Of a stretch of DNA of 64,000 bases, positions 12,795-29,247 are shown piece by piece; the stretch's first letter is position 1; the number at the start of each line of letters is the position of its first letter. A model generated the notes under the pieces. The model saw only the letters and a program-made list of their open reading frames with translations. It searched no databases and was not told the DNA's origin. The stretch comes from Verrucomicrobiia bacterium (GTDB lineage Bacteria; Verrucomicrobiota; Verrucomicrobiia; Limisphaerales; UBA11358), in NCBI GenBank assembly GCA_049692125.1, contig JBAVOO010000038.1:5588-69587 (forward strand), given 5' to 3'. Position numbers and translations under genes: made by a program.

Positions 12795-14312
12795 TCAGTC
12801 ACGCGATTCGACCTGTTGGTTGAACTCTTCAATCAACTGGTCGAAATACGCGACTTCGTCCTCGAACAACGCCCGCCAGTATTCCGGATTCCATTGTTCC
12901 GTCAGCTCGGCTGAAGTTTTCCCCTGCTGCTCGACCCAGGTGTAATACTTGAGATTGTGAATCGCCTTGCGCTCCGGATAGGTCAGTTCCTTGAAGTAAT
13001 CCACACTCTGGTGCGCGAGCGGGCCGGCAAAGTCAGCGACCGCGTCCTGCGCGCGATATGCGCCGCGCTCGTGCTTCAATTCCTCGACGCGCGAGCCGTA
13101 AAGCTCGGTGGAGTCGGTGAACACGGTGAAAATCACATCCCGCTCGGTCAGTTCGAAATGTTTTGCGGTCTTGATGGCGGCGAGCAGGTTGCAGATGCTG
13201 GAAATGCCGAGCAGCGGCAACGATTCCAACTCTTTCGCCTTCACCCCGAGCGAGGCGAGATGTTTCTGGCCGGCGGCTTCGTTGAACACGCGGAGAATTC
13301 TCATGCAATCCTCGTCGTCAATTGCGGCGACCGCGTCAGTGTTGCGGACGTTGTGAACCCACGGGACATGTTTGTCGCCGATGCCTTCGATGCGGTGATC
13401 ACCAAAGCCGTTCATCAGCAGAGTGGGGCACTGCAATGCTTCGGTCGCGACGATCTTCAGGGCGGGATGCTGCTTCTTCAGGTAATCGCCTGCCGCGATG
13501 GTGCCGGCGGAACCGGTTGCGGAAATGTAAGCCGCTGCGCGCAACGGAGCGCGGCGTTCACGCCGCTTCACCGTCCTAGCCGAAGCGGCGTAAACGCCGC
13601 GCTCCGACGCATTAAGTTTTTGAAAAACCTCGTCAATGGCCGGGCCGGTCACGTTGTAGTGAAAGATCGGATTACCGAATTCATCGAACTGGTTGAAGAT
13701 GACGTTCAGTGGGTCCTTTTTCAGTTCCCAACATTTGTCGTAAATCTCCTTCACGTTCGATTCGCAGCCAGGCGTGGCGATGATTTCCGCGCCAATCTTC
13801 TTCAGCCACTCGAAGCGTTCACGCGACATGCCCTGCGGCAGAATCGCGATGGCCGTGCAGTCCAGCACGGCACAGTCAAACGCGCCCCCGCGGCAAAAAT
13901 TTCCCGTGGACGGCCATGCGGCCTTGTGCTTCTCGGGATCGAACTCGCCGCTCACCAATCGCGGCACGAGGCAGCCAAACGCCGCGCCGACCTTGTGCGC
14001 GCCGGTCGGGAAATATTTTCCAACCAGCCCGATGACGCGCGCCTTGACGCCGGTGATGGCCGGCGGAATTTCCAGATAATTCACGCCGCCGTAGAAACCT
14101 GTCTTCATGTCGTTCTTCCAGGTGATGCGAAAAAGATTCACTGGATTCACGTCCCACAGCCCGACGCCTTTGAGCTTTCGCTTGATGGCGGGCGGGATGA
14201 GTTCCGGATTCCGCAGTTGCTTGAACGTGGGCAACACGATGCCGCGTTTGCGGCAGCGCGCCGCGGTTTTCCTGATGACCTCCGGATGCAGACGTTTTAT
14301 GATTTTGGACAT
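12795..14312 (-). CDS. Fold-type-II PLP-dependent enzyme (cysteine synthase / Trp-synthase-beta superfamily), 505 aa, function unknown
   Basis: PLP-lysine context FPTGAHKVGAAFG and Gly-rich loop ISATGSAGTIAAG. It is longer than classical CysK/CBS cores. First gene of the yge-like cluster. Confidence 0.85.
   Translation of the reverse strand: MSKIIKRLHPEVIRKTAARCRKRGIVLPTFKQLRNPELIPPAIKRKLKGVGLWDVNPVNLFRITWKNDMKTGFYGGVNYLEIPPAITGVKARVIGLVGKYFPTGAHKVGAAFGCLVPRLVSGEFDPEKHKAAWPSTGNFCRGGAFDCAVLDCTAIAILPQGMSRERFEWLKKIGAEIIATPGCESNVKEIYDKCWELKKDPLNVIFNQFDEFGNPIFHYNVTGPAIDEVFQKLNASERGVYAASARTVKRRERRAPLRAAAYISATGSAGTIAAGDYLKKQHPALKIVATEALQCPTLLMNGFGDHRIEGIGDKHVPWVHNVRNTDAVAAIDDEDCMRILRVFNEAAGQKHLASLGVKAKELESLPLLGISSICNLLAAIKTAKHFELTERDVIFTVFTDSTELYGSRVEELKHERGAYRAQDAVADFAGPLAHQSVDYFKELTYPERKAIHNLKYYTWVEQQGKTSAELTEQWNPEYWRALFEDEVAYFDQLIEEFNQQVESRD
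13546..13605. repeat. 60-bp near-perfect hairpin inserted in frame in the PLP-enzyme gene
   Basis: Arms ggagcgcggcgttcacgccgcttc and gaagcggcgtaaacgccgcgctcc (23/24 complementary) around a 12-nt loop. Encodes roughly ERGVYAASARTVKRRERRAP on the minus strand. Confidence 0.8.
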
Positions 14313-14392
14313 GGCTCGCGAATCTTACTAAGAAACGCGGCAAAAGGGAATTGAAGAAAAGCCCCGCGAGTTTGCCGAAAAGGGAATGAGAT

Positions 14393-14428
14393 TTGCCGAG
14401 CGCGGCCAGCGGCGATTTCACGCGCCAG
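14393..14428. repeat. Direct repeat copy 1 (duplicate of the ygeW 3' end)
   Basis: ttgccgagcgcggccagcggcgatttcacgcgccag versus 14923-14960 ttgcccagcgcggccagcggcgattttacccgcgccag. There are 34 identical positions, 2 mismatches and a 2-nt indel. Confidence 0.8.
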
Positions 14429-14513
14429 TCAGTTTGGGCTTGCCCTGAACCGGCAGACTGTTATATTTGATTAGAACAAAGGCAAACCTCAACCCGCCTC
14501 AAGGCGCATTGCT

Positions 14514-14900
14514 ATGAAACAAACATTCGGACGGTTTTTGAAAACGAAGCGGCTGGCGCTCGATTTGAGCCTGCGCGAGTTCGCGCGGAAGATCGGGATG
14601 CAGCCGTCCAACTACTGCAACATCGAGAGCGACGTCCTGCCGCCGCCGCCAGCCGAAGGGCTGGAGCGCATCGGCAAGGTGCTCGGCCTGAAAAAGGGCA
14701 CGCCGGATTACGCGAAGTTCCACGATCTATCGGCGCAGGGCCGGGACGAGATTCCGGCGGACGTGGAACGGATTGTGAAGGGGAACGAACTCCTGCCGGC
14801 GATGTTGCGCACGGTGGAGTATGAGAAGGTGACAAAGGAGCAGTTGCGCGGCATCATCGAGGACCTCAAAAGTGGGCGATACAAAAAGACCAGCCGTTAA
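14514..14900 (+). CDS. XRE-family helix-turn-helix transcriptional regulator
   Basis: 128 aa. FGRFLKTKRLALDLSLREFARKIGMQPSNYCNIESD is a classical Cro/C1-type HTH. Confidence 0.8.
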   Translation: MKQTFGRFLKTKRLALDLSLREFARKIGMQPSNYCNIESDVLPPPPAEGLERIGKVLGLKKGTPDYAKFHDLSAQGRDEIPADVERIVKGNELLPAMLRTVEYEKVTKEQLRGIIEDLKSGRYKKTSR

Positions 14901-14909
14901 AGTCAGGGA

Positions 14910-16076
14910 TTACTTGATCAACTTGCCCAGCGCGGCCAGCGGCGATTTTACCCGCGCCAGGAAAATCATCGCGGCAATCACGAATGGCTTGAAGCTCGCC
15001 TCGCGGTAGGTCGCGAGGCGGTGTTTCTCAAACACAGTCGCCGACACCTCGCCCTGCGCGCAGCTCACGCCCGAGATGTCCGCGGGCAGACAGTGCAGGT
15101 AGAGCGCCTTGCCGCCTTTGGTGAGTTTCATTTTCTTTTCGTCGCATTCCCAGTTCTTGAAGCGCGCATTGTTCGCGAGACATTCCTTCTCCAGCGCCTT
15201 CAGCCCGTCGAGGTAGCCCTGTTTTAACAAGGGTGTGCGTCTCTGCATCACCGCGTAAGGCGCCCACGATTTCGGATACACTACGTCCGCGTCGCGGAAC
15301 GCGTCCTCCATGTTCGACACCACTTCAAACTTGCCGCCGCACTTCGCCGCGTTTTTTTTCGCCAGTTCAACCACGTCCGGAATCAAACCGTAACCCTCCG
15401 GATGCGCCAGCGTCACGTTCATGCCGAACCGGGTCATCAAACCGATGATGCCCTGCGGCACGGACAGCGGTTTGCCGTAACTCGGCGAATACGCCCAGCT
15501 CATGGCAATCTTTTTGCCACGTAGATTTTCCAGCGAGCCAAAATGATTCTTCAGGTGGACCAGGTCCGCCATCGCCTGCGTCGGATGGTCAATGTCGCAT
15601 TGCAGGTTGATCACGTTGGGCCGCTGATGCAGCACGCCTTTCTCGAATCCCTCCTGCACCGCGGCGGAAAACTCGCGCATGTAACGGTTGCCCTCGCCGA
15701 GATACATGTCGTCGCGGATGCCGATGACCTCCGCCATGAAGGAAATCATGTTCGCCGTCTCGCGCACCGTCTCGCCATGGGCGATCTGGGATTTTTCCTC
15801 GTCCAGGTCCGCCAGGCCCAGGCCCAGCGAATTCGCCGCTGAAGCGAAGCTGAATCGCGTGCGCGTCGAGTTGTCGCGGAAGATGGAAATCGCCAGCCCG
15901 GTGTCAAAGACGCGGAAGGACTTGCCGGCCCGATGCATTTCGGAAAACAGCTCGGCCAGCGCTACCACGGCGCGGAGTTCGTCCTCGGACTTTTCCCGCG
16001 TCAGCAGGAAATCCTTGCCGTAGCTGTTGAATTTGAGCTTTTGCAGTTCAGCCAGTTGTTGTTTCCAGATCTTCAT
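14910..16076 (-). CDS. ygeW: YgeW-type (knotted) carbamoyltransferase
   Basis: Near-collinear with my recollection of E. coli YgeW: FRDNSTRTRFSF, KSQIAHGETVRETANMISF, NLQCDIDHPTQAMADL, WAYSPSYGKPLSVPQGIIGLMTRFGM, HCLPADISGVSC. The start is set at ATG 16076 (MKIWKQQ...). The ORF-track extension to 16154 runs into repeat A2. Confidence 0.92.
   Translation of the reverse strand: MKIWKQQLAELQKLKFNSYGKDFLLTREKSEDELRAVVALAELFSEMHRAGKSFRVFDTGLAISIFRDNSTRTRFSFASAANSLGLGLADLDEEKSQIAHGETVRETANMISFMAEVIGIRDDMYLGEGNRYMREFSAAVQEGFEKGVLHQRPNVINLQCDIDHPTQAMADLVHLKNHFGSLENLRGKKIAMSWAYSPSYGKPLSVPQGIIGLMTRFGMNVTLAHPEGYGLIPDVVELAKKNAAKCGGKFEVVSNMEDAFRDADVVYPKSWAPYAVMQRRTPLLKQGYLDGLKALEKECLANNARFKNWECDEKKMKLTKGGKALYLHCLPADISGVSCAQGEVSATVFEKHRLATYREASFKPFVIAAMIFLARVKSPLAALGKLIK
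14923..14960. repeat. Direct repeat copy 2 (inside the 3' end of ygeW)
   Basis: See 14393-14428. On the minus strand this copy encodes the native YgeW C-terminus ...ARVKSPLAALGKLIK. Confidence 0.8.
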
Positions 16077-16085
16077 GTATTTGAT

Positions 16086-16194
16086 GTGGCGCAGGCTTTC
16101 CAGCCTGCGGGTTCTGGGGACTTTCCAATCCCCAGTCTCTGGAACACGGGACAAGAATGTCCCGTGAACCCGCAGACAGGAATGTCTGCGCTAC
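16086..16194. repeat. Family A multi-hairpin repeat
   Basis: GTGGCGC ... GCGCTAC. Hairpins: gcaggctttccagcctgc, ggggactttccaatcccc, cgggacaagaatgtcccg, gcagacaggaatgtctgc. Confidence 0.8.
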
Positions 16195-16217
16195 CAGAGT
16201 GAGGTTCATGGAAAGGT

Positions 16218-17711
16218 TCATGGATTAGAGGACGCTTTTGCAGACACTTTGGTTCTTTCAGGTTTTGCCGCCGCGGCAATGGCATCAACGATCTGCTGGT
16301 AGCCAGTGCAGCGGCAGAGGTTTCCTGAGATTGCCGTTCGGATTTGTGTTTCGGTCGGATGTGGATTCAGATCCAGCAGTGCTTTTGCGCTCATCAGCAT
16401 TCCCGGGGTGCAGAATCCGCAGTGGACGGCATCGCAGTCCATGAAGGACTCCTGCAAAAGGTGGAGCTTGCCGCGCTGCATGAGTCCCTCCACGGTTAGA
16501 ACGTGTCGCCCGGCGATTTGTGGCGCGAGAACCAGACAGGAGTTCACCGGCTCGCCGTCGAGCAGCACCGTGCACGCCCCACACTCGCCAATCTCGCAAC
16601 CGCTTTTCGTGCCGGTAAAACCGAGCCGGTCACGCAGCAGATCGAGCAACGTCCAATGGGCGGGAATCGCAAGTGTATGGGAGCGCCCGTTGATGGTCGT
16701 GGTAATCGTAGCGCAGACTTCCAAGTCTGCCGTATTGCTGGTTTCTAAACCCGCGAGCCGTTCGACGTGCTCTGGCGTTGCCGATTTGGAAATCGGCGGT
16801 ACAGCAGACCTGGAAGTCTGCGGTACAGCAGGTTTGTCCCGCAAGGCGGGATGCGCTACTGCGGCTTGTTCCAACGCCCGGCGCACCAGCACGGCAATGA
16901 CGGGTTCCTTGTACTCCGACGACCAGCGCCTTCCGGCCTCTTTTATCATTTGCCCGGCAACTTTCTTTCCGGCGGCGGCGAACAGCTTCACCGCCGGCTT
17001 CTCGCCGACGAGCATCGCTTCGGCGTCCGTCACTCGCTTCCACACGGGGAAGACCGAGCCGGGAACGATGCGCGCATCACCGATTCTTCCATCGTCATTC
17101 ATTTGCAGAATGGCGGCAACACTCAGCCGGGAAGTCGAGAGTGCATTGCGGCGGCCGAGCTTGATGAATGCGCTTCGGGCGTTTGCCGGCAGCTTGGAGA
17201 AGCGGACAGCCGTCAGCAGTTCATCCGGTTTCGCCCTGGTTTGATAGGGTTTGAGGAACAGTTCCGCCAGATCCAGCTCGCGGCGCCCGGTCTTCGATTG
17301 CAGGGTCACGATTGCGCCCAGAGCGATCAGGGGCGGGACGGTGTCAGCGCACGTGGCGGCGTTCATGATGTTTCCGCCGATGGTTCCGCGATTTCTGATT
17401 TGCGGTGAACCGATGGTTGAAGCGGCTGAAACGAGGCACGGAGCAAACGTTCGCAATACGTTCGAACGCAGCAACTGGCTGTGCGTCGTAAGCGGCCGGA
17501 TGAGAATGCCGCCGTCGGATTCGATGATGCCGCCCAGTTCGTTCGCGCGGGAGGTGTCGAGAAGAACCTTGGGCGGCTTCGTTGATGGGTGCCGCAACTT
17601 GATCAATAAATCAGTTCCCCCGGCAAGGACAGAAGCATCGGGACCATGCTCGGAAAGGAGGCTGCACGCCTCAGCGATGGTCGCAACCGGGATGTAATCA
17701 AAAGGTTTCAA
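16218..17711 (-). CDS. Fused FAD-binding (CoxM/YgfM-like) and 2Fe-2S (CoxS-like) subunit of a molybdenum hydroxylase
   Basis: The N-terminal part (LKPFDYIPVATIAEA...LAGGTDLL...GTIGGNI) is a FAD subunit. The C-terminal part (INGRSHTL...GTKSGCEIGECGACTV...CGFCTPGM...CRCTGY) is a FeS subunit. The likely TTG start at 17711 overlaps the upstream TGA. The ORF-track start at 17837 lies inside the upstream gene. Confidence 0.85.
   Translation of the reverse strand: MKPFDYIPVATIAEACSLLSEHGPDASVLAGGTDLLIKLRHPSTKPPKVLLDTSRANELGGIIESDGGILIRPLTTHSQLLRSNVLRTFAPCLVSAASTIGSPQIRNRGTIGGNIMNAATCADTVPPLIALGAIVTLQSKTGRRELDLAELFLKPYQTRAKPDELLTAVRFSKLPANARSAFIKLGRRNALSTSRLSVAAILQMNDDGRIGDARIVPGSVFPVWKRVTDAEAMLVGEKPAVKLFAAAGKKVAGQMIKEAGRRWSSEYKEPVIAVLVRRALEQAAVAHPALRDKPAVPQTSRSAVPPISKSATPEHVERLAGLETSNTADLEVCATITTTINGRSHTLAIPAHWTLLDLLRDRLGFTGTKSGCEIGECGACTVLLDGEPVNSCLVLAPQIAGRHVLTVEGLMQRGKLHLLQESFMDCDAVHCGFCTPGMLMSAKALLDLNPHPTETQIRTAISGNLCRCTGYQQIVDAIAAAAKPERTKVSAKASSNP
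16708..16859. repeat. Family A multi-hairpin repeat forming the FAD/FeS linker
   Basis: GTAGCGC ... GCGCTAC. Hairpins: gcagacttccaagtctgc, gccgatttggaaatcggc, gcagacctggaagtctgc, cccgcaaggcggg. Encodes ...HPALRDKPAVPQTSRSAVPPISKSATPEHVERLAGLETSNTADLEVCAT.... Confidence 0.8.
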
Positions 17712-20068
17712 TGCGCACCTCGTCCCAGCTTGCACGAGTCGCCCGCCATCGGGTCCTTCTGGAGCGAGCCGCGCGCGCCTTTCCGCGACAGCTTGTGCCC
17801 CAGCAGCACGCGCTCCAGCGTGGCCGGGATCTCGCAAATGCGTTTGCCGGTCGCGTTGTAGATCGCGTTCACGATGGCCGGCGCAGCGATCTCATTGGTT
17901 GGCTCACCCACCGATTTCGCGCCGAATGGCCCCGCGGCGTCTTCGTTTTCGACGATAATGCCCCGGATCTTCGGAACGTCCAGCGCGGTCGGGATCAGGT
18001 ATTCGTCGAAGTTGAGCTGCTTGGGAACGGCGCCCTCAAAATCGAACTCCTCCAGCAACCCATAGCCGAGTCCCATCGCCACGCCGCCATAAAACTGCCC
18101 GAGCACCGTATTCCGGTTGATCGCTTTCCCAACGTCGTGGCAGGAAACAAAATTGACAACGTTGACCTTGCCGGTTTCGGTGTCCACTTCGACCTCCGCC
18201 ACATTCGCGCCATAGACAAAAGTGAAGTAGGCCTCACCAGTTCCTGCTTTTTCGTGCCAGGAGGCGGGCGGTGCCTTATGCCAGCCAAAGCCATACATCG
18301 GCTTGCCACGGCGGAAGCACTCGGCGGCGACCTCGGCAAACGACGCCATCCGTTTCCCGTTGCTTTTCCTGACGAGGTAATTGTCGGCAAATTCGCACTC
18401 TTGCTGATCAATTTTCAGCATGTTGGATGCAACTCCGAGCAGGGTCGCCCGGACGATTTCCGCCGCTTTCCTGGCCGCCGACCCGCCCATGATCGTTCCC
18501 CGCGAAGCCACGGTCGGTCCCGAGTCCGGTACCCGGCTGGTGTTCGTGTTCAGGAAGCGAATGCGATCCATGGAAACGCCGAGCACTTCGGCAGCGATTT
18601 GCGACATCTGAGTTTGTGCACCCTGTCCCATATCCGTAATGCCGGAGGAAACAATCACGCTGCCGTCAGTCTGCACCGAAACAATCGTCCCCGCGGCGTC
18701 CACACCTTCCGCGCCCAGCGACACGCCGCGGTAGCTGCACGCCAGTCCGATGCCGCGCTTCCGGGGAGCGTCCGCCGCCCGGCGATATTTCCTCCAATTC
18801 GGTTGAAAGTTCGCTGCCGCCGCGGCTTTCGTCAGCACTTCGCTTAAACTCACGTTGTGCGTGAGTCGTTGTCCGGTGGCTGTCACCGCCCCCGACTTGA
18901 AACCGTTCTGTAATCGAATCGCCAGCGGATCTTTTCCGACTTTCTCAGCCAGCTCGTCCATCATCGATTCGATGGCAAAATTCACCTGCGGTGAACCGAA
19001 GCCGCGCATGGCGCCGGTGTAGTTGTTGTTCGTGTAAACGGCGTACACATCGGTTTTCACGTTCTCGCAGCAGTATGGCCCCGTCGCCTGCACCACCGAC
19101 CGCCACGTGACGAACGGACTCATGGAAGCATACGCGCCGCCATCCGCGATGCACCGGACTTCCATGGCCGTAATCGAGCCGTCCTTTTTGGCACCCCACT
19201 TGTAGTAGAGAACATAGGGATGCCGTTTGTACGACTCGAGCATGGACTCCTCGCGGGAGTTGACCATCTTCACCGGTTGGCCGGTCGCGCGGGCCAACAG
19301 CGCGGCGCGGCAACACATCGCCGTCATGACTTCATCTTTTCCGCCGAACGAGCCCCCCAAGGTCGCCTGAATAATCTGAACCTGGTTGAGGTCGAGCTTG
19401 AGCGCGGCCGCAACGGAGCGCCGGCTGGAAAAAAGATTTTGAACGCTGCCGGTGACGATCACTCCGCCGTGCTCATCGGGTTCGGCCAGAACGGCCTCCG
19501 GCTCGAGGTACGAGTGCTCGACAAACTGCGTTTTGAACTTCCGCTCGATGAAGAAATCGGCCCGGGCGAATCCTTTCCCGATGTCTCCTTTGCGCACCTT
19601 GTGATGGACGAACGCGTTTTTGGCGCCGTGGATTCCCGGCGCATTCGCCTTCAGCGCTGCTTCGGGGTCGGAGACGATGGGAAGCGGCTGGTAGTCAACG
19701 TCAATGAGCGAGAGCGCTTGCTCGGCGATTTCTTTCGTGCGCGCCGCGACCAGGGCCACGCCGTCTCCGAGATAGCGGACTTTGTCCACCGCCAGGATTG
19801 CCTGGTTCTTCACCACAATTCCGAAGACCTTTTCGCCGGGAATATCGCGCGCCGTGAGAACCGCTTCGACCCCCGCCAGCCGTCCGGCTTTCGAGGTGTC
19901 GATCCGCAGGATACGCGCATGAGGATGCTTCGAGCGGAGCACTTTCCCGTAGAGTTGGTGGCCGACGGTGTAATCGGCAGCGAACTTTGCCCGTCCGGTC
20001 ACCTTTCCGATGGCATCGACCCGGCGCTCTCCCTTGCCGATGATCCTGGTTTTGCCCCGGCCCTTCAT
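17708..20068 (-). CDS. Molybdopterin-binding subunit of an XDH-family hydroxylase (XdhD/CoxL-like)
   Basis: 786 aa. RVDAIGKVTGRAKFAADY, GGSFGGKDE, TDMGQGAQT and KSVGEPT are hallmark blocks. Confidence 0.92.
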   Translation of the reverse strand: MKGRGKTRIIGKGERRVDAIGKVTGRAKFAADYTVGHQLYGKVLRSKHPHARILRIDTSKAGRLAGVEAVLTARDIPGEKVFGIVVKNQAILAVDKVRYLGDGVALVAARTKEIAEQALSLIDVDYQPLPIVSDPEAALKANAPGIHGAKNAFVHHKVRKGDIGKGFARADFFIERKFKTQFVEHSYLEPEAVLAEPDEHGGVIVTGSVQNLFSSRRSVAAALKLDLNQVQIIQATLGGSFGGKDEVMTAMCCRAALLARATGQPVKMVNSREESMLESYKRHPYVLYYKWGAKKDGSITAMEVRCIADGGAYASMSPFVTWRSVVQATGPYCCENVKTDVYAVYTNNNYTGAMRGFGSPQVNFAIESMMDELAEKVGKDPLAIRLQNGFKSGAVTATGQRLTHNVSLSEVLTKAAAAANFQPNWRKYRRAADAPRKRGIGLACSYRGVSLGAEGVDAAGTIVSVQTDGSVIVSSGITDMGQGAQTQMSQIAAEVLGVSMDRIRFLNTNTSRVPDSGPTVASRGTIMGGSAARKAAEIVRATLLGVASNMLKIDQQECEFADNYLVRKSNGKRMASFAEVAAECFRRGKPMYGFGWHKAPPASWHEKAGTGEAYFTFVYGANVAEVEVDTETGKVNVVNFVSCHDVGKAINRNTVLGQFYGGVAMGLGYGLLEEFDFEGAVPKQLNFDEYLIPTALDVPKIRGIIVENEDAAGPFGAKSVGEPTNEIAAPAIVNAIYNATGKRICEIPATLERVLLGHKLSRKGARGSLQKDPMAGDSCKLGRGAH

Positions 20069-20096
20069 GTCGCCGTCCTTGAGCCAGCTTTTTTGT

Positions 20097-20243
20097 CTAG
20101 TTTCGGCATAAGCACGCTCCGCCGGGCTGGTCGCCCTCGAGCAATTGGTTGTTGGAGACTACCACTTCACCGCGAACAAGAACATGTTTAAAATCCAGCG
20201 TGCGGCTCTGGTCGACCTTTCCGTTGCGAATCAGCACCTTCAT
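20097..20243 (-). pseudogene. 48-codon stub resembling the N-terminus of a cyclic amidohydrolase (hydantoinase/dihydropyrimidinase, HyuA-like)
   Basis: Hand translation gives MKVLIRNGKVDQSRTLDFKHVLVRGEVVVSNNQLLEGDQPGGACLCRN*. Compare E. coli HyuA MRVLIKNGTVVNADGQAKQDLLIESGIV (from memory). ATGA overlap with the stop of the thrC-like gene. Below the ORF-track length cutoff. Confidence 0.45.
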
Positions 20244-21493: not shown

Positions 21494-21611
21494 GTAGCGC
21501 AGACTTCCAAGTCTGCTGTATCGCGGGTTTCCCAACCCGCAGCCCGCACAACATCGAACGCCCCGCCGATTTGGAAATCGGCGATACAGCAGGTTGGGAA
21601 ACCTGCGCTAC
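21494..21611. repeat. Family A multi-hairpin repeat
   Basis: GTAGCGC ... GCGCTAC. Hairpins: gcagacttccaagtctgc, cgggtttcccaacccg, gccgatttggaaatcggc, gcaggttgggaaacctgc. Confidence 0.8.
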
Positions 21612-21669
21612 GAGCGATTCTATCCGCCGCTCGGGTGTTGATGGACACGCTTTTCATTCTTCCAGTTCG

Positions 21670-22926: not shown

Positions 22927-24242
22927 AAATTTTTTGCCAGCTCGCGGGCGCGGGCGTTCACGCGCCCCTCGTCGAGGTTCAGCGCGAGCTTCCGGTTCTC
23001 CATCAACACGCAGCCGCCGACGATGGTCGTATCTGCTTCCGTCTGGGAAATGCCGAACACGAGATGGCCGAACACGTTTCCACGCTCAAGCGGTGTCGGC
23101 GGGTCGTAATCGAAAATCGCGATGTCTCCGGCAGCACCTGCACAAATCTCGCCGAAGCGCAGACCGAAGATACGCCCGGCAACCTTGGGATTGTTCGCGA
23201 ACAACGCGCTCGTTACTTCGGCGAATCCAACCGACGGATTCTCCGCGCGCAAATGCTGACCCCACAGCGCGACACGCAGCTCCTCGAGCATGTTTGTGGT
23301 CATCGCATCCGTGCCGAGGCCGACGAGCACGCCGCGCTTCGCCAGTCCGATGACGTTCGCCACGCCGACGGCGTTGTTCATGTTTGATTGCGGGTTGTGA
23401 ACGACCGCGGTCCGCGTCTCCGCCAGCAAATCCATTTCGCGCCGGTTGACGTGGATGCAGTGCGCCGCGATGGAGCGCGGGCCGAGGATTTCGAACTTCC
23501 TCAAGCGCTCGACCACGCGTTTGCCACCGTGCCGCAGCGCCCAGTCCTGATCGCTCTGCGCCTCGGCGACGTGGATGTGAAAGCCGGTGTGCAACTCGTG
23601 ACCGAGGGTTGCGGCCTTTTCCATCGTGGCGTCGGAAATCGTGAACGACGCGTGCAAGCCGAAAAGCGCTTTCACGCGGGAGTCATTCTGCCGCTGGCAT
23701 TGGCGGATGAACCGCACGTTCTCCGCCAACCCCTCCTTCGCGATTCGCGCGCCGTCGCGGTCGGACAGCTCGTAGCAGAGGCAGGCACGCAGGCCGGTTT
23801 CACGCACCGCCCGCTCAATCGCGCCCAGCGAGCCGGCCACCGCGCCCGGGCTGGCATGATGATCAATCAGAGTCGTCGTGCCGTGGCGGATTGAATCGAG
23901 CAGCGCGATCAGCGCACTGTAGTAGCAATCTTCCGTGGTCAGCGCGGAATCCAGCCGCCACCAGAGGTTTTTGAGCACTTCGTTGAAATCTTTCGCGGGC
24001 TTCGTTTTTGTTAACCCGCGCGCAAAGCTGCTGTAGAAATGTGTGTGCGCGTTGATGAATCCGGGCAGGACAACCTTGCCCGTCGCATCAATGCGTTTGC
24101 CGCGGAAATTTTTGACCGCCTTCTTCGGTGCGACCTTGGCCACCAGGCCGTTCTCGATGAGAACCGAATGGCCGCGCAGAACCTTGGAGGTTTTTCCCAA
24201 GGTCAGCACCGTTCCGTTTTCGATGAGCAGGGAATTGGACAT
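22911..24242 (-). CDS. ssnA: SsnA-type amidohydrolase (aminohydrolase superfamily)
   Basis: 443 aa. PGFINAHTHFYSSFARG, LKNLWWRLD, IDHHASP, VHNPQSNMNN and LGTDA fit the SsnA family. Confidence 0.9.
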   Translation of the reverse strand: MSNSLLIENGTVLTLGKTSKVLRGHSVLIENGLVAKVAPKKAVKNFRGKRIDATGKVVLPGFINAHTHFYSSFARGLTKTKPAKDFNEVLKNLWWRLDSALTTEDCYYSALIALLDSIRHGTTTLIDHHASPGAVAGSLGAIERAVRETGLRACLCYELSDRDGARIAKEGLAENVRFIRQCQRQNDSRVKALFGLHASFTISDATMEKAATLGHELHTGFHIHVAEAQSDQDWALRHGGKRVVERLRKFEILGPRSIAAHCIHVNRREMDLLAETRTAVVHNPQSNMNNAVGVANVIGLAKRGVLVGLGTDAMTTNMLEELRVALWGQHLRAENPSVGFAEVTSALFANNPKVAGRIFGLRFGEICAGAAGDIAIFDYDPPTPLERGNVFGHLVFGISQTEADTTIVGGCVLMENRKLALNLDEGRVNARARELAKNLWKRM

Positions 24243-24246
24243 GGGT

Positions 24247-26808
24247 TCAACCTTCGTTCAGCGCGGCCAGTTCCTGCGGCGTGCGGTCGCGCATCGAGAT
24301 GGCGCCGGCAAAACATTTCTGCGCGCAGAGCGAACAGCCGACGCAGTGACTGGGGTCAAACGTCGGGACGCCGCGGCGGTCAAGCACGATGGCCTGATAC
24401 GGACAGCGCGTGCAGTTGCCGCAATGCTGGCAAAGGGCGGCGATGACTTGCGGCAGTTGCTTCGTCGGCGACAACGCCCCAAAGTCGGTGATCGGATTCG
24501 GCAGCGCCGAGCCGATGAGTTCCTTGACCGAGCCGAAGCCGCGCTCCGCCATCAGATAACTGAGACCGGAGTGAAGTTCGTCCACGTAACCGAGGCCATA
24601 TTTCATCACGGCGGTGCAGAACTGGACGGTCTGTGCGCCGAGCGCGAGGAAGTTCGCGGCGTCCCGGTAGGTCATCGCGCCGCCGTTGCCCGAGACGGTG
24701 ATGCCCGTGCTGGAAACCTTGGCGAGGGTGAGATTGCTGATCGGCAAAACACCTCCGCCGGACATGCCAATGACCACGCCTTCCTCCCAGCGGCGGTTTT
24801 CCGCTTTGCGGAACGCGAGGGACGGAAAGCTGTTGGCGAGTGTGACACCGGCTTTTTTGCCCGGGTAACGCGCGAAGACTTCCTGAATCGCCTTGATGAT
24901 CGGTTGGATGGCGGTGACTGCGGCGGTGAGCTTGAACAGCTTCGGGTTGTCGTCGTCGCTCGCTTCCATGACCCAATCAACGATCTTCGCGGTCAGGGCG
25001 GCGTTTTGCGAAACAACGTCGCCATGCGTGCCATCGCCGCCTTGCGGACAGGAGAGGCTGTATTCGACCCCCATCGCGCCGGCGTTTTGCAGCTTGCGCG
25101 TGTTGGATTGCCAGACCGCCTTGTCCGCCTTGTCGCTGCCGGTGACCGGGCCGCCGGTCGAGGCGAGCGTCAGGTGATCAGGGAATTCCTTTACGAGCTT
25201 TTTGACTTCGCGACAGACACGGTCGAGCGGATGGCCGGAGACGTTGTCGCAATTGCCGTAGGTCGAGCGCGTGAGCTCGAACATGTAGCCGGCGGGAATG
25301 TGAATCGGCACGTTATCGAACGCGGTCTTCATCACACCACCGGACCAGCCGCGCTCGTAGGCCTTGCGCATCTGCCCGTAGCCATCCGAGTGCGGCGCAG
25401 CGGAGAGCAGGAACGGCGAGAGAATCCTGCGGCCAAAAAAATCGGCAGCGAGTGGCACAGGGCGCAGCGGCACGCCAGCCAGGATGACTCGGCTCTTCGC
25501 GCGATTCTTGAACTTCGGTCGCGCTTCGCCACGAATGAACGCATCGGCTTCTGCGGCGGCGTTCTTGCCGCTGGCGACGGACTCCACCACGGTCGCCGCG
25601 CCGAGCACCACGTCGCCGGCGTGGAAAATTCCCCTGGCTTTCGTGACCGGCAGTTTGGGACGGCTGCCGATGGCGGAAATTACGAGATCGAACTCACGAA
25701 AGACCGGCGATTCCCTTTTGCTGACGATGAAATTCTCCGGTCGCGACTTTTTGCCCGGTGGCAGCATCATGCGCGCAAGGCGGAGGCCGGTGACACGTTT
25801 GCCCCGGTGAACGACGGCCAGCGGCCTGGAGCAACTGGTGATCTCAACGCCGTGTTCGAGCAACATGTCGCGCTCATATTGTGTCAGCGGCATGTCCTGC
25901 TCCCGACGGCGATAAACCAATTCAACCGACGCAGCGCCGAGCCGCCTGGCTGTCGTCGCGCAATCCGCCGCCACCGCGCCGCCGCCGAGGACGGCGACCT
26001 TTTTGCCTTTGAGTTTGAGCTGCTTCTGGTTTTCCAGAAACATCTGCCACGACAGCGTGAGTTCCTCGCCGGGAAGGTTCAGCTTGATCGGTTCAGCCAG
26101 GCCGGCGCATACGATGACGGCATCAAAATTCTCACGGAGACTTTCCAGTGTGATCTTATTCCTGGCAGGGCCGCGCGGCCGCGCGGCCTGGCCGACCGGC
26201 AGGTCGGCCCTGCCATTTTCATTTGGAACGACAATTACCCCATGCTTGAATTCGACGTTACCAAGGCTTTTGAGAAACGCGATGTCCGCGCGAACCACCC
26301 GCTGGTCCAGCCGGAAGTCGGGGATGAGATTCATCGCCCCGCCGGCCCGTTTTTGCTGTTCGAAAATCGCCACCTTGTAGCCGGCTTGCAGGAGCACGCT
26401 CGCCGCGCCCAAACCCGCCGGTCCGGCGCCGATGATGGCGACAGTTTTCCCATTCGGTTCAGCGCGCCGGAATTTCGCCATCCCGGCCTCGCAGGCCTTT
26501 TTAATGACGGTCGCTTGAACAGCGGGAATCTCAATTGGCCGGTCAAAAGTGCGCCGCGAGCATGCTTTCATGCAGAAGTAATCCGGACAGACCACGCCGC
26601 AAACCCAGCCGAGGGGGTTCGCGCCCATGATCGTCGCGGCCGAGCGCCGGAAGTCTGATTTCTCCCCAACCCGCGCCGCCATGATAAAATCCGCGGGCGA
26701 ACAGTGGGCAGGGCAGGCTTCTTGACATGGCTTTTCCTCGCAGTAAATACACCGGTCCAGTTCCGCCCGGAATTGGGCGTCGGTGAGTGAGCCGTCATTC
26801 GTTTTCAT
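24247..26808 (-). CDS. YgfK-like oxidoreductase: GltD/PreT-like FAD/NAD(P) domain fused to a PreA/dihydropyrimidine-dehydrogenase-like TIM barrel with C-terminal 2x[4Fe-4S]
   Basis: N-terminal CIYCEEKPCQEACP; VAIIGAGPAGLGAA; central DHOD/DPD-like barrel; C-terminal CQHCGNCTRCPY...CVGCSLCAQKC. The start is set at ATG 26808 (MKTNDGS). Confidence 0.88.
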   Translation of the reverse strand: MKTNDGSLTDAQFRAELDRCIYCEEKPCQEACPAHCSPADFIMAARVGEKSDFRRSAATIMGANPLGWVCGVVCPDYFCMKACSRRTFDRPIEIPAVQATVIKKACEAGMAKFRRAEPNGKTVAIIGAGPAGLGAASVLLQAGYKVAIFEQQKRAGGAMNLIPDFRLDQRVVRADIAFLKSLGNVEFKHGVIVVPNENGRADLPVGQAARPRGPARNKITLESLRENFDAVIVCAGLAEPIKLNLPGEELTLSWQMFLENQKQLKLKGKKVAVLGGGAVAADCATTARRLGAASVELVYRRREQDMPLTQYERDMLLEHGVEITSCSRPLAVVHRGKRVTGLRLARMMLPPGKKSRPENFIVSKRESPVFREFDLVISAIGSRPKLPVTKARGIFHAGDVVLGAATVVESVASGKNAAAEADAFIRGEARPKFKNRAKSRVILAGVPLRPVPLAADFFGRRILSPFLLSAAPHSDGYGQMRKAYERGWSGGVMKTAFDNVPIHIPAGYMFELTRSTYGNCDNVSGHPLDRVCREVKKLVKEFPDHLTLASTGGPVTGSDKADKAVWQSNTRKLQNAGAMGVEYSLSCPQGGDGTHGDVVSQNAALTAKIVDWVMEASDDDNPKLFKLTAAVTAIQPIIKAIQEVFARYPGKKAGVTLANSFPSLAFRKAENRRWEEGVVIGMSGGGVLPISNLTLAKVSSTGITVSGNGGAMTYRDAANFLALGAQTVQFCTAVMKYGLGYVDELHSGLSYLMAERGFGSVKELIGSALPNPITDFGALSPTKQLPQVIAALCQHCGNCTRCPYQAIVLDRRGVPTFDPSHCVGCSLCAQKCFAGAISMRDRTPQELAALNEG
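26164..26214. repeat. 51-bp GC-rich double hairpin inserted in frame in the ygfK-like gene
   Basis: Sequence ggcagggccgcgcggccgcgcggcctggccgaccggcaggtcggccctgcc, with flanking GGCAGGG/CCCTGCC. Encodes ...GRADLPVGQAARPRGPA.... Confidence 0.6.
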
Positions 26809-27039
26809 AGCCCTGATGCTGATTAACCATTTTATCCTGACATCGCAAGAACATCCCACCCACACACTTATTGCCCTTTGCTTCACTTTTCTTGTCGGTG
26901 ATGGGCGGTTTGCCGTGCCTCAGCCCGATTCGCTCTTTCAACTGCCGTTTGGATGCGGCAAGAACGGTTCCGCTCTCCCGACCGGCAAATCGCCTGCTGC
27001 CGTTGCTCTGTGATTGACAGGACGCTTCCCGAATGATTA

Positions 27040-28260
27040 GTGGTTGGCATGCCGGTCACTTTCCACGATATCCAGGAGGCGGCAAACCGGATCGCCGGCC
27101 AGGTTATTCAATCGCCCTGCCCGCGTTCCATTCCGCTGTCCGAAGCCACGGGATTAAACGTCTATTGCAAGCTGGAATACCTGCAACGCACCGGCAGTTT
27201 CAAGGAACGCGGCGCCCGCAACGCGCTACTGACGCTCCCACCGAAACAGAAAAAACACGGCGTGATCGCCGCATCCGCGGGGAATCATGCCCTCGGCCTG
27301 TCTTATCACGGCCAGTTGCTCGGCATCCCGGTTACGGTCGTGATGCCCCGCTTTGCGCCGCTGACGAAAGTGGTGAATTGCCGGCGCTTGGGAGCCACGG
27401 TCGTGTTGCACGGTGCCGATCTTGCCGAAGCGCGCCTGCGCGCGGATGAAATCGCCGGCGAACAAAGCCTCCGGTACATCAACGGATACGACGATCCCGC
27501 CATCATCGCCGGGCAGGGAACCCTTGGCCTGGAGATTATCGCGCAGGTTCCGGACGTCGAGGCGGTGATTGTTCCCATCGGTGGCGCCGGCTTGGTTGCC
27601 GGGCTGGCACTTGCAGTGAAGACCCTCAAACCACGAGTGCGGATAATCGGAGTGGAACCCGAACGCGCCGCCAGCTTCACTGCGGCTCTGGCTGCCGGCC
27701 GGCCGGTGCCGGTTGAAATTCAACCCACGCTCGCAGACGGATTGGCGGTGCCACAGGTCGGCAAACACGCCTTCGCCATCGCCCGCAAACTCGTGGACAA
27801 AACCCTGCTCGTCGGCGAGCACGAGCTGGCGCTCGCCATATTGCGTCTCTTGGAACTTGAAAAGGCGGTGGTTGAAGGAGCCGGCGCGGCGCCGCTCGCG
27901 GCCTGTCTGGCCGGTCTGGTGCCGGAACTGAAAGGAAAAAATGTCGTGCTGCCATTGTGCGGCGGCAATATTGACACTCCCATTCTCGGCCGGATCCTGG
28001 AACGGGGCCTGGCCTCGGACGGGCGGCTTTGGCGCTTCACGGCAACGATCAGCGATCGTCCGGGCGGGCTGGCGCGCTTCGCCGGACTGCTCGCTGAAAC
28101 CGGCGCGAGCATTCTGGAAATTTCCCACGATCGCGCATTCTCCAGCGATGACATCACGACGGTAAGCGTGCATTGCGTCGTCGAAACCCGGGACGCCGCT
28201 CACATGGCCATCATCCGCAAACGCCTCAATCAGGAAGGGTTTCGGGTGTCGGCGCCATGA
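27040..28260 (+). CDS. Threonine ammonia-lyase-type PLP enzyme with a C-terminal ACT-like domain
   Basis: 406 aa. KLEYLQRTGSFKERGARN, GNHALG and GGAGL fit threonine/serine dehydratases. An alternative start lies at 27049. Confidence 0.88.
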   Translation: MVGMPVTFHDIQEAANRIAGQVIQSPCPRSIPLSEATGLNVYCKLEYLQRTGSFKERGARNALLTLPPKQKKHGVIAASAGNHALGLSYHGQLLGIPVTVVMPRFAPLTKVVNCRRLGATVVLHGADLAEARLRADEIAGEQSLRYINGYDDPAIIAGQGTLGLEIIAQVPDVEAVIVPIGGAGLVAGLALAVKTLKPRVRIIGVEPERAASFTAALAAGRPVPVEIQPTLADGLAVPQVGKHAFAIARKLVDKTLLVGEHELALAILRLLELEKAVVEGAGAAPLAACLAGLVPELKGKNVVLPLCGGNIDTPILGRILERGLASDGRLWRFTATISDRPGGLARFAGLLAETGASILEISHDRAFSSDDITTVSVHCVVETRDAAHMAIIRKRLNQEGFRVSAP

Positions 28261-28308
28261 ATTTTGCGTATGCTTAATGACGTTGGATAAGTTAAAGCTC
28301 GCGGTACC

Positions 28309-29247
28309 GTGAAAACACTCGTCATCGCCATCGGCGGCAACTCGCTCATCACGAATGCGCAACACATGAGCGTGCCTGACCAGTATGCCGCCGTGGTCAA
28401 AACCGCGTATCACATCACCGACCTGCTGGAACATCGCCATCGCATCGTCATCACTCACGGGAACGGACCGCAGGTTGGTTTCATTCTGCTCCGCAGTGAA
28501 CACTCGCGCGGCATCCTGCACCAGGTGCCCCTCGATTCCATTGTCGCCGATACCCAGGGCGCGCTCGGCTACCAGATTCAGCAGGCGCTGGAGAACGAGT
28601 TCCACCGCCGCGGCTTGAAGAAATCGGTGGTGACCGTGGTGACCCAGACGCTGGTGAACCGCGACGACACTGCCTTTGCCAGCCCAGCCAAACCCATCGG
28701 TGAATTTTACACGCGCGAACAGGCGGAGGACCGGATGCGGGTTGAGAAATGGACGATGATTGAGGACGCCGGCCGCGGCTGGCGGCGGGTTGTCGCTTCG
28801 CCCATCCCCATGCGCATTATCGAATCTGGAGTCGTCAGGCACCTGGTCAAGTACGGCTATGTCGTCATCGCGGCGGGCGGTGGCGGCATTCCCGTGGTGG
28901 CAGACGAAAATGACATTCTTAGCGGAGTTGCCGCCGTGATTGACAAAGACCTTGCCTCCGCTGTGCTGGCCAGGGAAATCGGCGCCGACATGTTGGTGAT
29001 TTCTACCGCCGTCGAGAAGGTCTGCCTGAACTTCGGCACCCCCGGGCAACGGGCGCTCGACTCGATGACCGTGGCCGAAGCCAGACGGTACATGGCCGAA
29101 GGTCATTTCAAACCGGGTTCGATGCTTCCCAAAATTGAAGCATGCCTCCAATTCGTCACGAACAGCGGTCATGAAGCTCTGATTACCTGCCCCGAAGCAC
29201 TCCCAGCCGCATTGGATGGCCACACCGGCACCCGCCTGGTCCCTTAG
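28309..29247 (+). CDS. arcC: Carbamate kinase
   Basis: 312 aa with a GTG start. LVIAIGGNSL, THGNGPQVG, GGGGIPV and VIDKDLASA are carbamate-kinase hallmarks. This is the YqeA position in the yge cluster. Confidence 0.92.
   Translation: MKTLVIAIGGNSLITNAQHMSVPDQYAAVVKTAYHITDLLEHRHRIVITHGNGPQVGFILLRSEHSRGILHQVPLDSIVADTQGALGYQIQQALENEFHRRGLKKSVVTVVTQTLVNRDDTAFASPAKPIGEFYTREQAEDRMRVEKWTMIEDAGRGWRRVVASPIPMRIIESGVVRHLVKYGYVVIAAGGGGIPVVADENDILSGVAAVIDKDLASAVLAREIGADMLVISTAVEKVCLNFGTPGQRALDSMTVAEARRYMAEGHFKPGSMLPKIEACLQFVTNSGHEALITCPEALPAALDGHTGTRLVP

Follow-up and report, generated by a model that had tools for sequence, protein, structure and literature searches.

A ygeW/ygeY/ssnA-type purine gene cluster without ygeX in a Verrucomicrobiia bacterium, and a threonine-synthase-derived candidate for the missing lyase

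How might a gene cluster for anaerobic purine degradation reach pyruvate if it has no YgeX, the enzyme that ends the known route? The question is raised by a 64,000-nt stretch of contig JBAVOO010000038.1 from a Verrucomicrobiia bacterium (the window; G+C about 59%), in which the region under study lies at 12795-29247. A preliminary description, made from the sequence, had taken this region for a variant of the E. coli ygeW/ygeY/ssnA/yqeA purine-catabolic cluster that has no YgeX, keeps only a stub of the hydantoinase and holds three fold-type-II pyridoxal phosphate (PLP) enzymes. All of these points were borne out. We put at about 0.68 the probability that 3.4-36 kb of the window is a purine-to-pyruvate supercluster and that 12.8-29.2 kb within it is a reductive 2,8-dioxopurine variant, in which a protein derived from threonine synthase (ThrC), here called ThrCL, replaces YgeX.

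The anaerobic urate pathway was solved biochemically in 2025 (Li et al., PMC12507026; Liu et al., bioRxiv 10.1101/2025.04.24.650524), so the overall function of the window's cluster is already known, and the link between homologous clusters and anaerobic urate degradation, which the preliminary description had given as genetic, is now biochemical too. In both studies urate is converted to 2,8-dioxopurine ("yanthine") by XdhD-YgfM or XdhAC, and 2,8-dioxopurine is dearomatized by YgfK or, in C. difficile, by the PydA-like UacX. SsnA and then ring opening by HyuA lead to 2,3-diureidopropionate, which is decarbamoylated by YgeW (with ATP formed via carbamate kinase) and YgeY to 2,3-diaminopropionate; YgeX converts the latter to pyruvate. 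E. coli YgeW was shown to form carbamoyl phosphate by phosphorolysis of one of the ureido groups of 2,3-diureidopropionate (PMC12507026; Liu et al.). Both studies and a commentary leave the order and stereochemistry of ureido cleavage open, and a selenium-cofactor trait (YqeB, YqeC, and SelD) is reported for all gut strains with the cluster. The two 2025 papers, a 2022 preprint, and a full-text search made no mention of Verrucomicrobiota or of a threonine-synthase-like gene, and we found no literature linking such a gene or the phyla surveyed below to the yge/ssnA cluster.

Genes were chosen from the list of open reading frames (ORFs) by Pfam and NCBIfam matches, and the choices were checked against the gene calls of ENA ERZ25039471 contig_11355 (locus L086 of our survey), which matches the window base for base in reverse orientation. 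Absences within the 64 kb were called by tblastn with E. coli pathway proteins. Pairs of scores are bits versus the curated NCBIfam cut-off. The genes of the region are the following.

12795-14312, minus strand: PLP505, a fold-type-II PLP enzyme of 505 aa, distantly CysK/CBS-like (PF00291)
14514-14900, plus strand: small XRE-type helix-turn-helix (HTH) gene between the ygeW and PLP505 genes (HTH_31/HTH_3)
14910-16076, minus strand: YgeW, knotted carbamoyltransferase (NF005538, 661 vs 453; TIGR03316, 637 vs 500; 65% identity to E. coli YgeW)
16218-17711, minus strand: electron-transfer subunit, 497 aa (FAD_binding_5, CO_deh_flav_C, Fer2, and Fer2_2)
17708-20068, minus strand: molybdenum (Mo)-binding subunit of the xanthine dehydrogenase (XDH) family, 786 aa (Ald_Xan_dh_C, MoCoBD_1, and MoCoBD_2)
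20097-20243, minus strand: relic of a HyuA-like hydantoinase, 48-codon ORF (aligned by tblastn and at the DNA level with the intact L002 and L020 genes)
20240-21466, minus strand: ThrCL, ThrC-derived fold-type-II PLP enzyme of 408 aa with an N-terminal four-Cys zinc ribbon (PF00291)
21670-22902, minus strand: YgeY, M20 hydrolase (NF009555, 535 vs 321; 52% identity to E. coli YgeY)
22911-24242, minus strand: SsnA, amidohydrolase (NF005540, 545 vs 444; TIGR03314, 516 vs 455.5; 34% full-length identity to the E. coli protein)
24247-26808, minus strand: DPD-type reductase, 853 aa (Fer4_20 and Pyr_redox_2, DHO_dh, two 4Fe-4S domains)
27049-28260, plus strand: IlvA-type threonine/serine ammonia-lyase, 403 aa, one ACT domain (TIGR01127, 404 vs 379; NF005600, 452 vs 496)
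28309-29247, plus strand: carbamate kinase, YqeA/ArcC (TIGR00746, 380 vs 358; 47% identity to E. coli YqeA)

Read from 26808 down to 12795, the minus-strand order is DPD-type reductase, SsnA, YgeY, ThrCL, relic, Mo subunit, the subunit with FAD and two [2Fe-2S] domains, YgeW, and PLP505, and stop and start codons overlap at several junctions of this operon. The run is interrupted between YgeW and PLP505 by the opposite-strand HTH gene, which may be a regulator or a mobile insertion; L003 and L004 have a HEPN/nucleotidyltransferase pair at this site. The divergent plus-strand genes encode the IlvA-type enzyme and carbamate kinase, followed by glutamate decarboxylase and a major facilitator superfamily (MFS) transporter. 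A scan of 12-31 kb for promoter and terminator consensus sequences gave nothing above shuffled controls, and Rfam at gathering thresholds found one tRNA and no riboswitch in the window.

YgeW, YgeY, carbamate kinase, and SsnA, the marker used by Li et al., all score above their curated cut-offs as members of the pathway families. The ATP-yielding end that had been proposed for the cluster is retained with YgeW and carbamate kinase, ATP formation having been shown for the E. coli enzymes. A tblastn search of the 64 kb with E. coli YgeX returned only a weak match of 54 residues, inside the PLP505 gene, and E. coli HyuA matched only the N-terminus of SsnA. YqeC was not found in the 64 kb, and YqeB was found only as an XdhC-like protein matching YqeB residues 13-249.

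The cluster was then placed among relatives. A ThrCL scan of one genome per GTDB species gave 539 relatives; the best 80 of the 539 (57-89% identity) were fetched and annotated by tblastn with the window proteins and E. coli proteins, and 37 loci with at least 8 kb on either side form the fully covered set. A reciprocal PLP505 scan of metagenome contigs gave 585 relatives, with 51 loci evaluable for the upstream neighbor. Close homologues are labeled Limisphaerales or Verrucomicrobiota metagenome-assembled genomes (MAGs). ThrCL loci occur in Verrucomicrobiota, Acidobacteriota (including Holophagae), Ignavibacteriota, Bacteroidota, KSB1, Planctomycetota, and Myxococcota, mostly in MAGs from peat, lakes, groundwater, and soil. 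The recurring order is a DPD-type reductase or true YgfK, SsnA, YgeY, ThrCL, in many loci a hydantoinase, the Mo and FeS (iron-sulfur) subunits, YgeW, and PLP505. A gene-neighborhood comparison had been suggested in the preliminary description, and this one found the same order in Verrucomicrobiota relatives and at least six further phyla. Within the fully covered set, SsnA is present in 32 loci, YgeW in 33, PLP505 in 33, the Mo subunit in 34, a reductase of either type in 33, and a YgeY orthologue (at least 55% identity) in 23. YgeX is present in 1 of the 37, and E. coli-type YgeX in 2 of 160 sampled loci, a rarity that is conditional because the loci were picked with ThrCL or PLP505 as bait and form no unbiased census. 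With this gene order found again in dozens of species-level genomes, chance can be set aside. ThrCL and PLP505 are conserved core genes of a multi-phylum cluster family and not idiosyncrasies of the source genome.

Purine-related genes also surround these loci. An XDH homologue lies directly upstream of the reductase gene in seven loci of other phyla (L026, L032, L039, L058, L062, L075, and L078), Holophagae versions hold a UacT homologue with 54-59% identity to the E. coli urate permease, and some of them hold YqeB and YqeC. An XdhC-like/MocA-like pair follows PLP505 in Ignavibacteriota, KSB1, and Bacteroidota loci, and the adenine deaminase gene is conserved beside the cluster in Verrucomicrobiota relatives.

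Two further observations were made on the surveyed loci. Six metagenome loci (L135, L142, L146, L148, L128, and L130) have a third cluster architecture, in which a ThrC-like gene of about 40% identity adjoins an SsnA of about 40% identity; the reductase is a split PreT-like plus PreA-like pair or a half-length YgfK, and after it come PLP505, YgeY (55%), and in some cases a distant YgeW (42% identity). In L147 (6407-7431) and L157 (5231-6191), about 1 kb (some 300 codons) between the UacT homologue and the next cluster gene carries no annotation and may hold another conserved gene of the Acidobacteriota version.

ThrCL scores 185 vs 167 on the threonine synthase model TIGR00260, more than 120 database clusters at 77% identity or more are all annotated as threonine synthase, and the AlphaFold model (pLDDT 84) has threonine synthase structures as its best Foldseek matches (TM-score 0.7-0.8). 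We aligned 83 ThrCL family members with four solved ThrCs and use T. thermophilus (Tt) numbering. The PLP lysine K61 (K111 in the window's protein) and the S84-T85-G86-N87 carboxylate loop are invariant in the family. The phosphate site is different. We take Tt Thr88, Asn154, Ser155, Arg160, and Asn188 to be the ThrC residues that bind the phosphate of O-phosphohomoserine, as reportedly seen in the T. thermophilus structures, and the four solved ThrCs conserve all of these positions. In the ThrCL family, R160T and N188D are found in 83 of 83 members and T88A, N154T, and S155A in 81 to 83 of 83, with Q164K, N157H, and Y275Q as further changes. The phosphate that ThrC retains is said to be needed for its final water addition, so a ThrC scaffold that has lost the phosphate site should act as a lyase and not as a synthase. 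The second ThrC-like clade (about 40% identity, beside SsnA) has Leu or Cys in place of Arg160 and shares Ala88, Lys164, Asp188, and Ser240. ThrCL is embedded in the purine cluster in about 80 species-level loci, and a thr operon context was seen in none of the loci. By these residue changes and this context, a biosynthetic scaffold appears quite clearly to have been refashioned in ThrCL for a catabolic role.

Three Acidobacteriota-type loci that are otherwise collinear bear on which reaction this would be. ThrCL occurs without YgeX in L157, YgeX (35% identity to E. coli YgeX, located after the carbamate kinase gene) occurs without ThrCL in L147, and the two occur together in L045; PLP505 is present in all three. 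The exchange of ThrCL for YgeX while PLP505 stays constant suggests that ThrCL is the YgeX analogue and that PLP505 serves an extra, YgeW-linked step. None of the surveyed loci holds another fold-type-II PLP gene. ThrCL is thus predicted to be a diaminopropionate lyase replacing YgeX, and PLP505 would be an additional YgeW-linked step that has no E. coli counterpart.

PLP505 is itself distant from named families. It scores 94 vs 351 on the CysK model TIGR01139, its best NCBIfam match, and 90 vs 344 on TIGR01136, which places it outside CysK/CysM, although public annotation reads cysteine synthase here, as it reads threonine synthase for ThrCL. The core motifs FPTGAHKVGA, WPSTGN, and GSAGT are conserved, and the protein carries extensions of about 80 residues at the N-terminus and about 150 at the C-terminus. 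YgeW is the immediate upstream neighbor of PLP505 in 40 of the 51 evaluable metagenome loci. In four Myxococcota loci (L060, L069, L080, and L082), ThrCL and PLP505 are divergent neighbors with only a partial YgfK homologue, an XdhC-like gene, and a MobA-like gene nearby; YgeW, YgeY, and, except in L082, SsnA are absent within 10 kb, and Pfam on L060 returned no more than an FeS protein, a MobA-like domain, and a transposase. This divergent pair without the rest of the cluster indicates that the ThrCL and PLP505 genes travel together.

Several points weigh against ThrCL as the substitute for YgeX, in addition to the choice of bait. The swap comprises three loci only, one of which, L045, holds both YgeX and ThrCL. 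For the list of phosphate-site residues, a literature search gave nothing usable, although the four solved ThrCs conserve the positions. The distal ThrCL pocket is enlarged and lined by Asp, Lys, and His; a larger side chain such as the ureido group of albizziin would fit it better than diaminopropionate, which is small. The lyase could just as well be PLP505: the AlphaFold model of this protein (pLDDT 56, from a shallow alignment of 36 sequences at 82% identity or more) favors neither assignment and was judged too poor for a fold search, and hhalign against E. coli YgeX was weak for both families (probability of 66% for ThrCL and 46% for PLP505) and did not tell the analogue apart. YgeX, a hydantoinase, or a second ThrC could also be encoded outside the 64-kb window, and the Mo subunit is 31% identical to XdhA and 30% to XdhD, a sequence relationship that gives no regiospecificity.

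Some of these points feed an alternative that we consider unlikely, namely that PLP505 is the diaminopropionate lyase or that one of the PLP enzymes acts on albizziin made by YgeW, either eliminating urea or carbamate or exchanging the beta-substituent, so that the terminal chemistry and products would differ from those in E. coli. The adjacency of YgeW and PLP505 mirrors E. coli ygeW-ygeX; however, PLP505 is unchanged in L147, which has YgeX and no ThrCL, and is hence not simply the YgeX equivalent. For albizziin, a ureido group roughly matches the O-phospho side chain of the ThrC substrate in length and would fit the larger pocket, three Verrucomicrobiota loci (L016, L019, and L022) have no YgeY between ssnA and ThrCL, and many Holophagae loci have only an M20 protein of 33% identity. 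However, the YgeY orthologues in 23 of the 37 fully covered loci argue that diaminopropionate is still formed. Ureido is also a poor leaving group, and we know of no PLP-dependent urea-lyase that works in this way.

A broader proposal, which we regard as possible and advance tentatively, is that ThrCL and PLP505 make up between them a terminal branch whose chemistry departs from that of E. coli. They might, for instance, use PLP to cleave or exchange the beta-ureido group of (D-)albizziin, or they might process diaminopropionate in an enantiomer-specific way. Among free-living anaerobes of peat, lakes, groundwater, and soil in at least seven phyla, this branch and not YgeX would then be the prevailing form of the pathway, perhaps with a selenium-independent Mo enzyme.

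As the preliminary description had noted, the window keeps a stub of the hydantoinase, and an intact HyuA-type hydantoinase is absent from the 64 kb. The relic (20243-20097, minus strand) reads MKVLIRNGKV and, after the junction, DQSRTLDFKHVLVRGEVVVSNNQLLEGDQPGGACLCRN. Its first 10 and last approximately 37 codons correspond to the beginning and the end of the intact hydantoinase of relatives (L002 and L020), the C-terminal part having 82% amino acid identity to residues 417-450. The DNA flanking the junction is 86% and 91% identical to the two ends of the 450-aa hydantoinase gene of L020, and this alignment of both gene ends indicates that about 1.2 kb was lost in frame. The gene caller of the public contig also lists the 48-aa ORF. 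The intact protein has 31% identity to E. coli HyuA and scores best on the dihydropyrimidinase/D-hydantoinase model (TIGR02033, 308 bits). L019 keeps only the last approximately 8 hydantoinase codons, which indicates a second, independent deletion. Of 72 species-level loci, 50 have a hydantoinase after ThrCL; the other 22 lack it and keep the remaining genes intact, and they include a whole Limisphaerales clade in which the well-conserved neighbors abut cleanly. The cluster-encoded hydantoinase is therefore dispensable.

These deletions raise the alternative that the cluster is decaying in the source genome and that its pathway is broken. We consider this improbable. The relic and the independent, larger deletion in L019 are what it would predict; however, the remaining cluster genes are all full length compared with their homologues, and the loss of the hydantoinase from 22 loci while the other proteins stay 80-95% identical across species indicates purifying selection. 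The deletion is moreover in frame and spares both the 4-nt ATGA overlap of the ThrCL stop and the relic start and the downstream Mo gene.

The window's ThrCL gene is recombinant in comparison with L006 and L014-L020. Residues 1-40 and approximately 360-408 match a hydantoinase-bearing Limisphaerales clade (90-100%), and the core (residues 41-340) matches the hydantoinase-less clade (92-100%), with which the window's protein shares 45 of 54 clade-diagnostic positions. In the window and L019, the two genomes where a hydantoinase deletion is visible, the core is of the hydantoinase-less type. A coupling of ThrCL sequence type to the presence of the hydantoinase was rejected, because the 54 diagnostic positions are specific to one Limisphaerales clade.

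The enzymes that would begin the reductive route differ from those of E. coli. The preliminary description had named a YgfK-like reductase and XdhD/YgfM-type hydroxylase subunits beside YgeW, YgeY, SsnA, and carbamate kinase; the last four stand, but the others do not. The 853-aa reductase consists of a PreT-like FAD/NAD(P)H half, a PreA-like FMN barrel (PF01180), and two 4Fe-4S domains. Membership in the YgfK family is ruled out by its score of 156 vs 835 on TIGR03315 and by its domain order, which is the reverse of that in YgfK (N-terminal barrel and C-terminal GltD-like half) and matches DPD; the alignment to YgfK covers the GltD-like half only (27% identity). On the PreA model NF006183 it scores 194 vs 335. 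By its layout it is a fused PreT/PreA protein of the mammalian DPD type, nearer in kind to the PydA-like UacX of C. difficile. Its gene lies directly upstream of ssnA, the YgfK position, and among relatives this reductase is of the DPD type in 22 loci and a true YgfK in 11.

The Mo subunit reaches no NCBIfam cut-off (XdhD TIGR03313, 333 vs 1102) and its partner scores 30 vs 241 on the YgfM model TIGR03312, which rules out an XdhD/YgfM-type hydroxylase; the FAD domain of the partner resembles XdhB and not YgfM. The two genes overlap by 4 nt. Since Fer2 and Fer2_2 share a protein (16218-17711) with FAD_binding_5 and CO_deh_flav_C, the 2Fe-2S domains are on the FAD subunit, as had been described. 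Li et al. (PMC12507026) proposed XdhD Glu606 as a determinant of yanthine formation. This residue aligns within an XdhD-specific insertion, and no counterpart position is readable in the window's Mo subunit. The only close kin of the Mo and FAD-FeS pair (93-98% identity for the pair; no other locus has an electron-transfer subunit above 86%) are in L019, L020, L087, L093, and L094, with remoter FAD-bearing relatives (Mo subunit 73-83% identical) in L107, L128, L130, and L142. Most other loci have a 763-aa Mo subunit (about 45-46% identity to the window's) and an FeS-only small subunit, and YgfK-type Holophagae and other Acidobacteriota loci have a third Mo subunit (about 32-34% identity), in a few cases with an FAD domain. 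Such different enzymes in one slot indicate that the hydroxylase module was exchanged in place, and the window's pair is a rare, swapped-in type.

Because family membership fails, the roles of both enzymes are read from cluster position. The reductase would be the 2,8-dioxopurine reductase, the counterpart of YgfK and UacX, and the Mo and FAD-FeS pair a putative urate 6-dehydroxylase (2,8-dioxopurine dehydrogenase). The subthreshold scores of the two enzymes, and the two Mo-enzyme types that occupy the same slot among close relatives, would also suit a cluster that degrades a related heterocycle (xanthine directly, another oxopurine, or a substituted pyrimidine) and not urate. We find this decidedly doubtful, since the orthology of YgeW and YgeY fixes a downstream C3 skeleton (diureido- or ureido-aminopropionate), urate permease homologues lie inside Holophagae versions, the classical, urate-making XDH stands directly upstream here as in the seven loci of other phyla, and C. 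difficile likewise uses a non-YgfK, PydA-like reductase for urate.

The IlvA-like gene, the third PLP gene, is co-oriented with the carbamate kinase gene. It adjoins the cluster only among Verrucomicrobiota, where 10 of 14 loci have it, and L029 differs in carrying it downstream of PLP505. The ACT domain match is weak. The gene is a Verrucomicrobiota-specific accessory of the cluster. That the three PLP genes have housekeeping functions (threonine synthase, cysteine synthase, and biosynthetic threonine deaminase) and simply stand among purine genes, as their public annotations and the ThrCL and IlvA-like scores on TIGR00260 and TIGR01127 might suggest, is very improbable given the synteny across at least seven phyla, the invariant loss of the ThrC phosphate-site residues including Arg160, and the low CysK score of PLP505, and is tenable for the IlvA-like gene alone, which is confined to Verrucomicrobiota loci.

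From the observed gene content, family membership, synteny, active-site changes, and deletion, we infer the following route with ThrCL in place of YgeX, most cautiously for the Mo enzyme, ThrCL, and PLP505. Adenine would be deaminated by the adenine deaminase encoded upstream, and the 1308-aa XDH would oxidize hypoxanthine to xanthine and urate. The cluster's Mo/FAD-FeS hydroxylase would convert urate to 2,8-dioxopurine, the DPD-type reductase would dearomatize this product, and SsnA would open the first ring of the reduced 2,8-dioxopurine. The second ring would normally be opened by the hydantoinase to give 2,3-diureidopropionate; here the deleted step would have to be supplied in trans, dispensable, or flux-limiting. 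YgeW would phosphorolyze one ureido group, with carbamate kinase converting carbamoyl phosphate to ATP, and YgeY would hydrolyze the other to give 2,3-diaminopropionate, from which ThrCL would eliminate ammonia to form pyruvate. PLP505 would most likely catalyze a beta-elimination, a beta-replacement, or a stereochemical step on albizziin (the ureido intermediate with a free alpha-amino group) or diaminopropionate, and the IlvA-like enzyme would be a lineage-specific helper. Selenium dependence may not apply to this cluster.

The flanking genes that belong to the proposed supercluster or to Mo cofactor supply are listed here. A ModA-like binding protein also lies downstream.

3387-7313, plus strand: single-chain XDH, 1308 aa, a fusion of XdhA and XdhB (2Fe-2S, FAD, and Mo Pfam domains; TIGR02963, 484.5 vs 467; TIGR02965, 1015 vs 849.5)
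8658-10058, plus strand: purine-base permease of the Xan_ur_permease family, GhxQ/AzgA-like (PF00860; 33% full-length identity to E. coli GhxQ)
10863-12575, plus strand: adenine deaminase (TIGR01178, 589 vs 472.5)
34689-35612, plus strand: XdhC-family maturation factor (tblastn to YqeB residues 13-249; below NCBIfam cut-off)
35636-36280, plus strand: MocA-like cytidylyltransferase (tblastn to MocA; below NCBIfam cut-off)
37758-38732, minus strand: MoaA (Radical_SAM and Mob_synth_C)
40017-41675, minus strand: MoaE-MoeA fusion (MoaE, MoeA_N, and MoCF_biosynth)

The adjoining module of XDH, adenine deaminase, and permease and the nearby MocA and XdhC had been described before, and all of them are present. 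Between the XDH and permease genes, a dip in G+C coincides with a 425-aa ORF (7356-8633, plus strand) that has no Pfam or NCBIfam match; a hit to the PADLOC type II restriction endonuclease model REase_II (1.2e-13) covers its C-terminal half, and no methyltransferase gene is adjacent. This ORF had been considered as a missing hydrolase and was rejected as a restriction-endonuclease-like protein. Between permease and adenine deaminase, a UPF0175 and DUF3368 pair (10036-10859, plus strand; PADLOC PDC-S70, 3.9e-41) resembles a toxin-antitoxin pair, and small toxin-antitoxin or HEPN/nucleotidyltransferase pairs are also found in intergenic gaps of related clusters (L003/L004). A third Mo hydroxylase is encoded at 348-2995 (plus strand) by a 158-aa 2Fe-2S subunit and a 724-aa Mo subunit, in which a MoCoBD_2 segment stands ahead of the hammerhead and MoCoBD_1 in an unusual, permuted order.

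Right after carbamate kinase, glutamate decarboxylase (TIGR01788, 632 vs 380) and the MFS transporter (29463-32105, plus strand) are arranged as in L020, and they may be an acid-resistance or GABA (gamma-aminobutyrate) module co-transcribed with an ammonia-producing pathway. Farther downstream, 46908-57301 (minus strand) encodes a class I aldolase, phosphoketolase, acetate kinase, a glycogen-phosphorylase-like protein, phosphoglucomutase, and RpiB, a fermentative carbon block in keeping with an organism that could make acetate and ATP from pyruvate or acetyl phosphate. Beyond a tRNA gene (59634-59706, minus strand) lie a phage-type integrase (59759-61072) and a NERD-domain protein, and the G+C falls from about 0.58 to 0.48-0.53 over 59634-64000, which is probably the edge of an integrated element.

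The pathway has been known since 2025 only from gut Bacillota and E. coli, and the window's cluster and its relatives extend its range to seven phyla from non-host habitats. The new part is the ThrC-derived lyase candidate together with the YgeW-linked PLP505, in a widespread and undescribed version of the cluster. Surveys that count any PF00291 protein as YgeX would merge ThrCL and PLP505 with it, and public annotation mislabels these two enzymes. The variable hydantoinase and Mo-enzyme type among relatives bear on the engineering of uricolytic strains.

The window and E. coli have in common orthologous YgeW (65%), YgeY (52%), SsnA (34%), and carbamate kinase (47%). In both, the gene just upstream of ssnA encodes a flavin/FeS reductase, the Mo hydroxylase is of the XDH family and has an FAD module, genes for purine transport and salvage and for MocA- and XdhC-type maturation factors are close by, and carbamoyl phosphate yields ATP. 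The E. coli clusters are ygeW-ygeX-ygeY-hyuA-yqeA and ygfK-ssnA-ygfM-xdhD, whereas the window has ThrCL and PLP505 and no YgeX. Its reductase is a fused PreT/PreA protein of the DPD type where E. coli has the YgfK family, its FeS domains are on the FAD subunit and its Mo subunit is not of the XdhD type, whereas E. coli has the FeS domains on the Mo subunit, its hydantoinase is deleted, and YqeC and full-length YqeB are absent within 64 kb. The host, an uncultured MAG of the Limisphaerales type, is an environmental Verrucomicrobium of soil or fresh water, in contrast to the gut bacterium E. coli.

The clusters of C. difficile and C. sporogenes (UacX, UacY, and XdhAC/DOPDH) provide precedents, since in them YgfK is replaceable by a PydA/DPD-family reductase (PF01180) and the subunit architecture of the Mo enzyme varies between pathway versions. 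SsnA, YgeY, and the hydantoinase are common to the clostridial clusters and the relatives of the window's cluster. However, the clostridial reductase has no FAD/NAD(P)H half and the clostridial Mo enzyme no FAD subunit, so that their electron donor may be of the ferredoxin type, whereas both parts are present in the window's enzymes. YgeX is kept in clostridia, which are selenium-dependent; the window has no YgeX. In C. difficile, the hydrolase UacY replaces YgeW and carbamate kinase, which the window's cluster keeps.

The reductive pyrimidine pathway (PydA/DPD or PreT-PreA, PydB, and PydC) has the same reductase domain order and the same logic of reduction, ring opening, and decarbamoylation, and the deleted hydantoinase belongs to the dihydropyrimidinase/hydantoinase family, as in that pathway. 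However, all of the scores are below the PreA and dihydropyrimidinase cut-offs, and SsnA, YgeW, YgeY, and the XDH-family neighbors are foreign to the pyrimidine route.

ThrCL and ThrC (1UIM/1V7C, 2ZSJ, 2D1F, and 6CGQ) have the same fold with about 31-37% identity, the PLP lysine, the S-T-G-N loop, and an E-G-x-K-T motif in common, whereas the phosphate-holding residues of ThrC are all replaced in ThrCL. YgeX, or DAPAL (diaminopropionate ammonia-lyase), and ThrCL are both fold-type-II PLP enzymes of the same cluster family, and the YgeX of L147 fills the ThrCL role. The two share 23% identity over 166 residues, and if their functions match, ThrCL would be a case of non-orthologous displacement.

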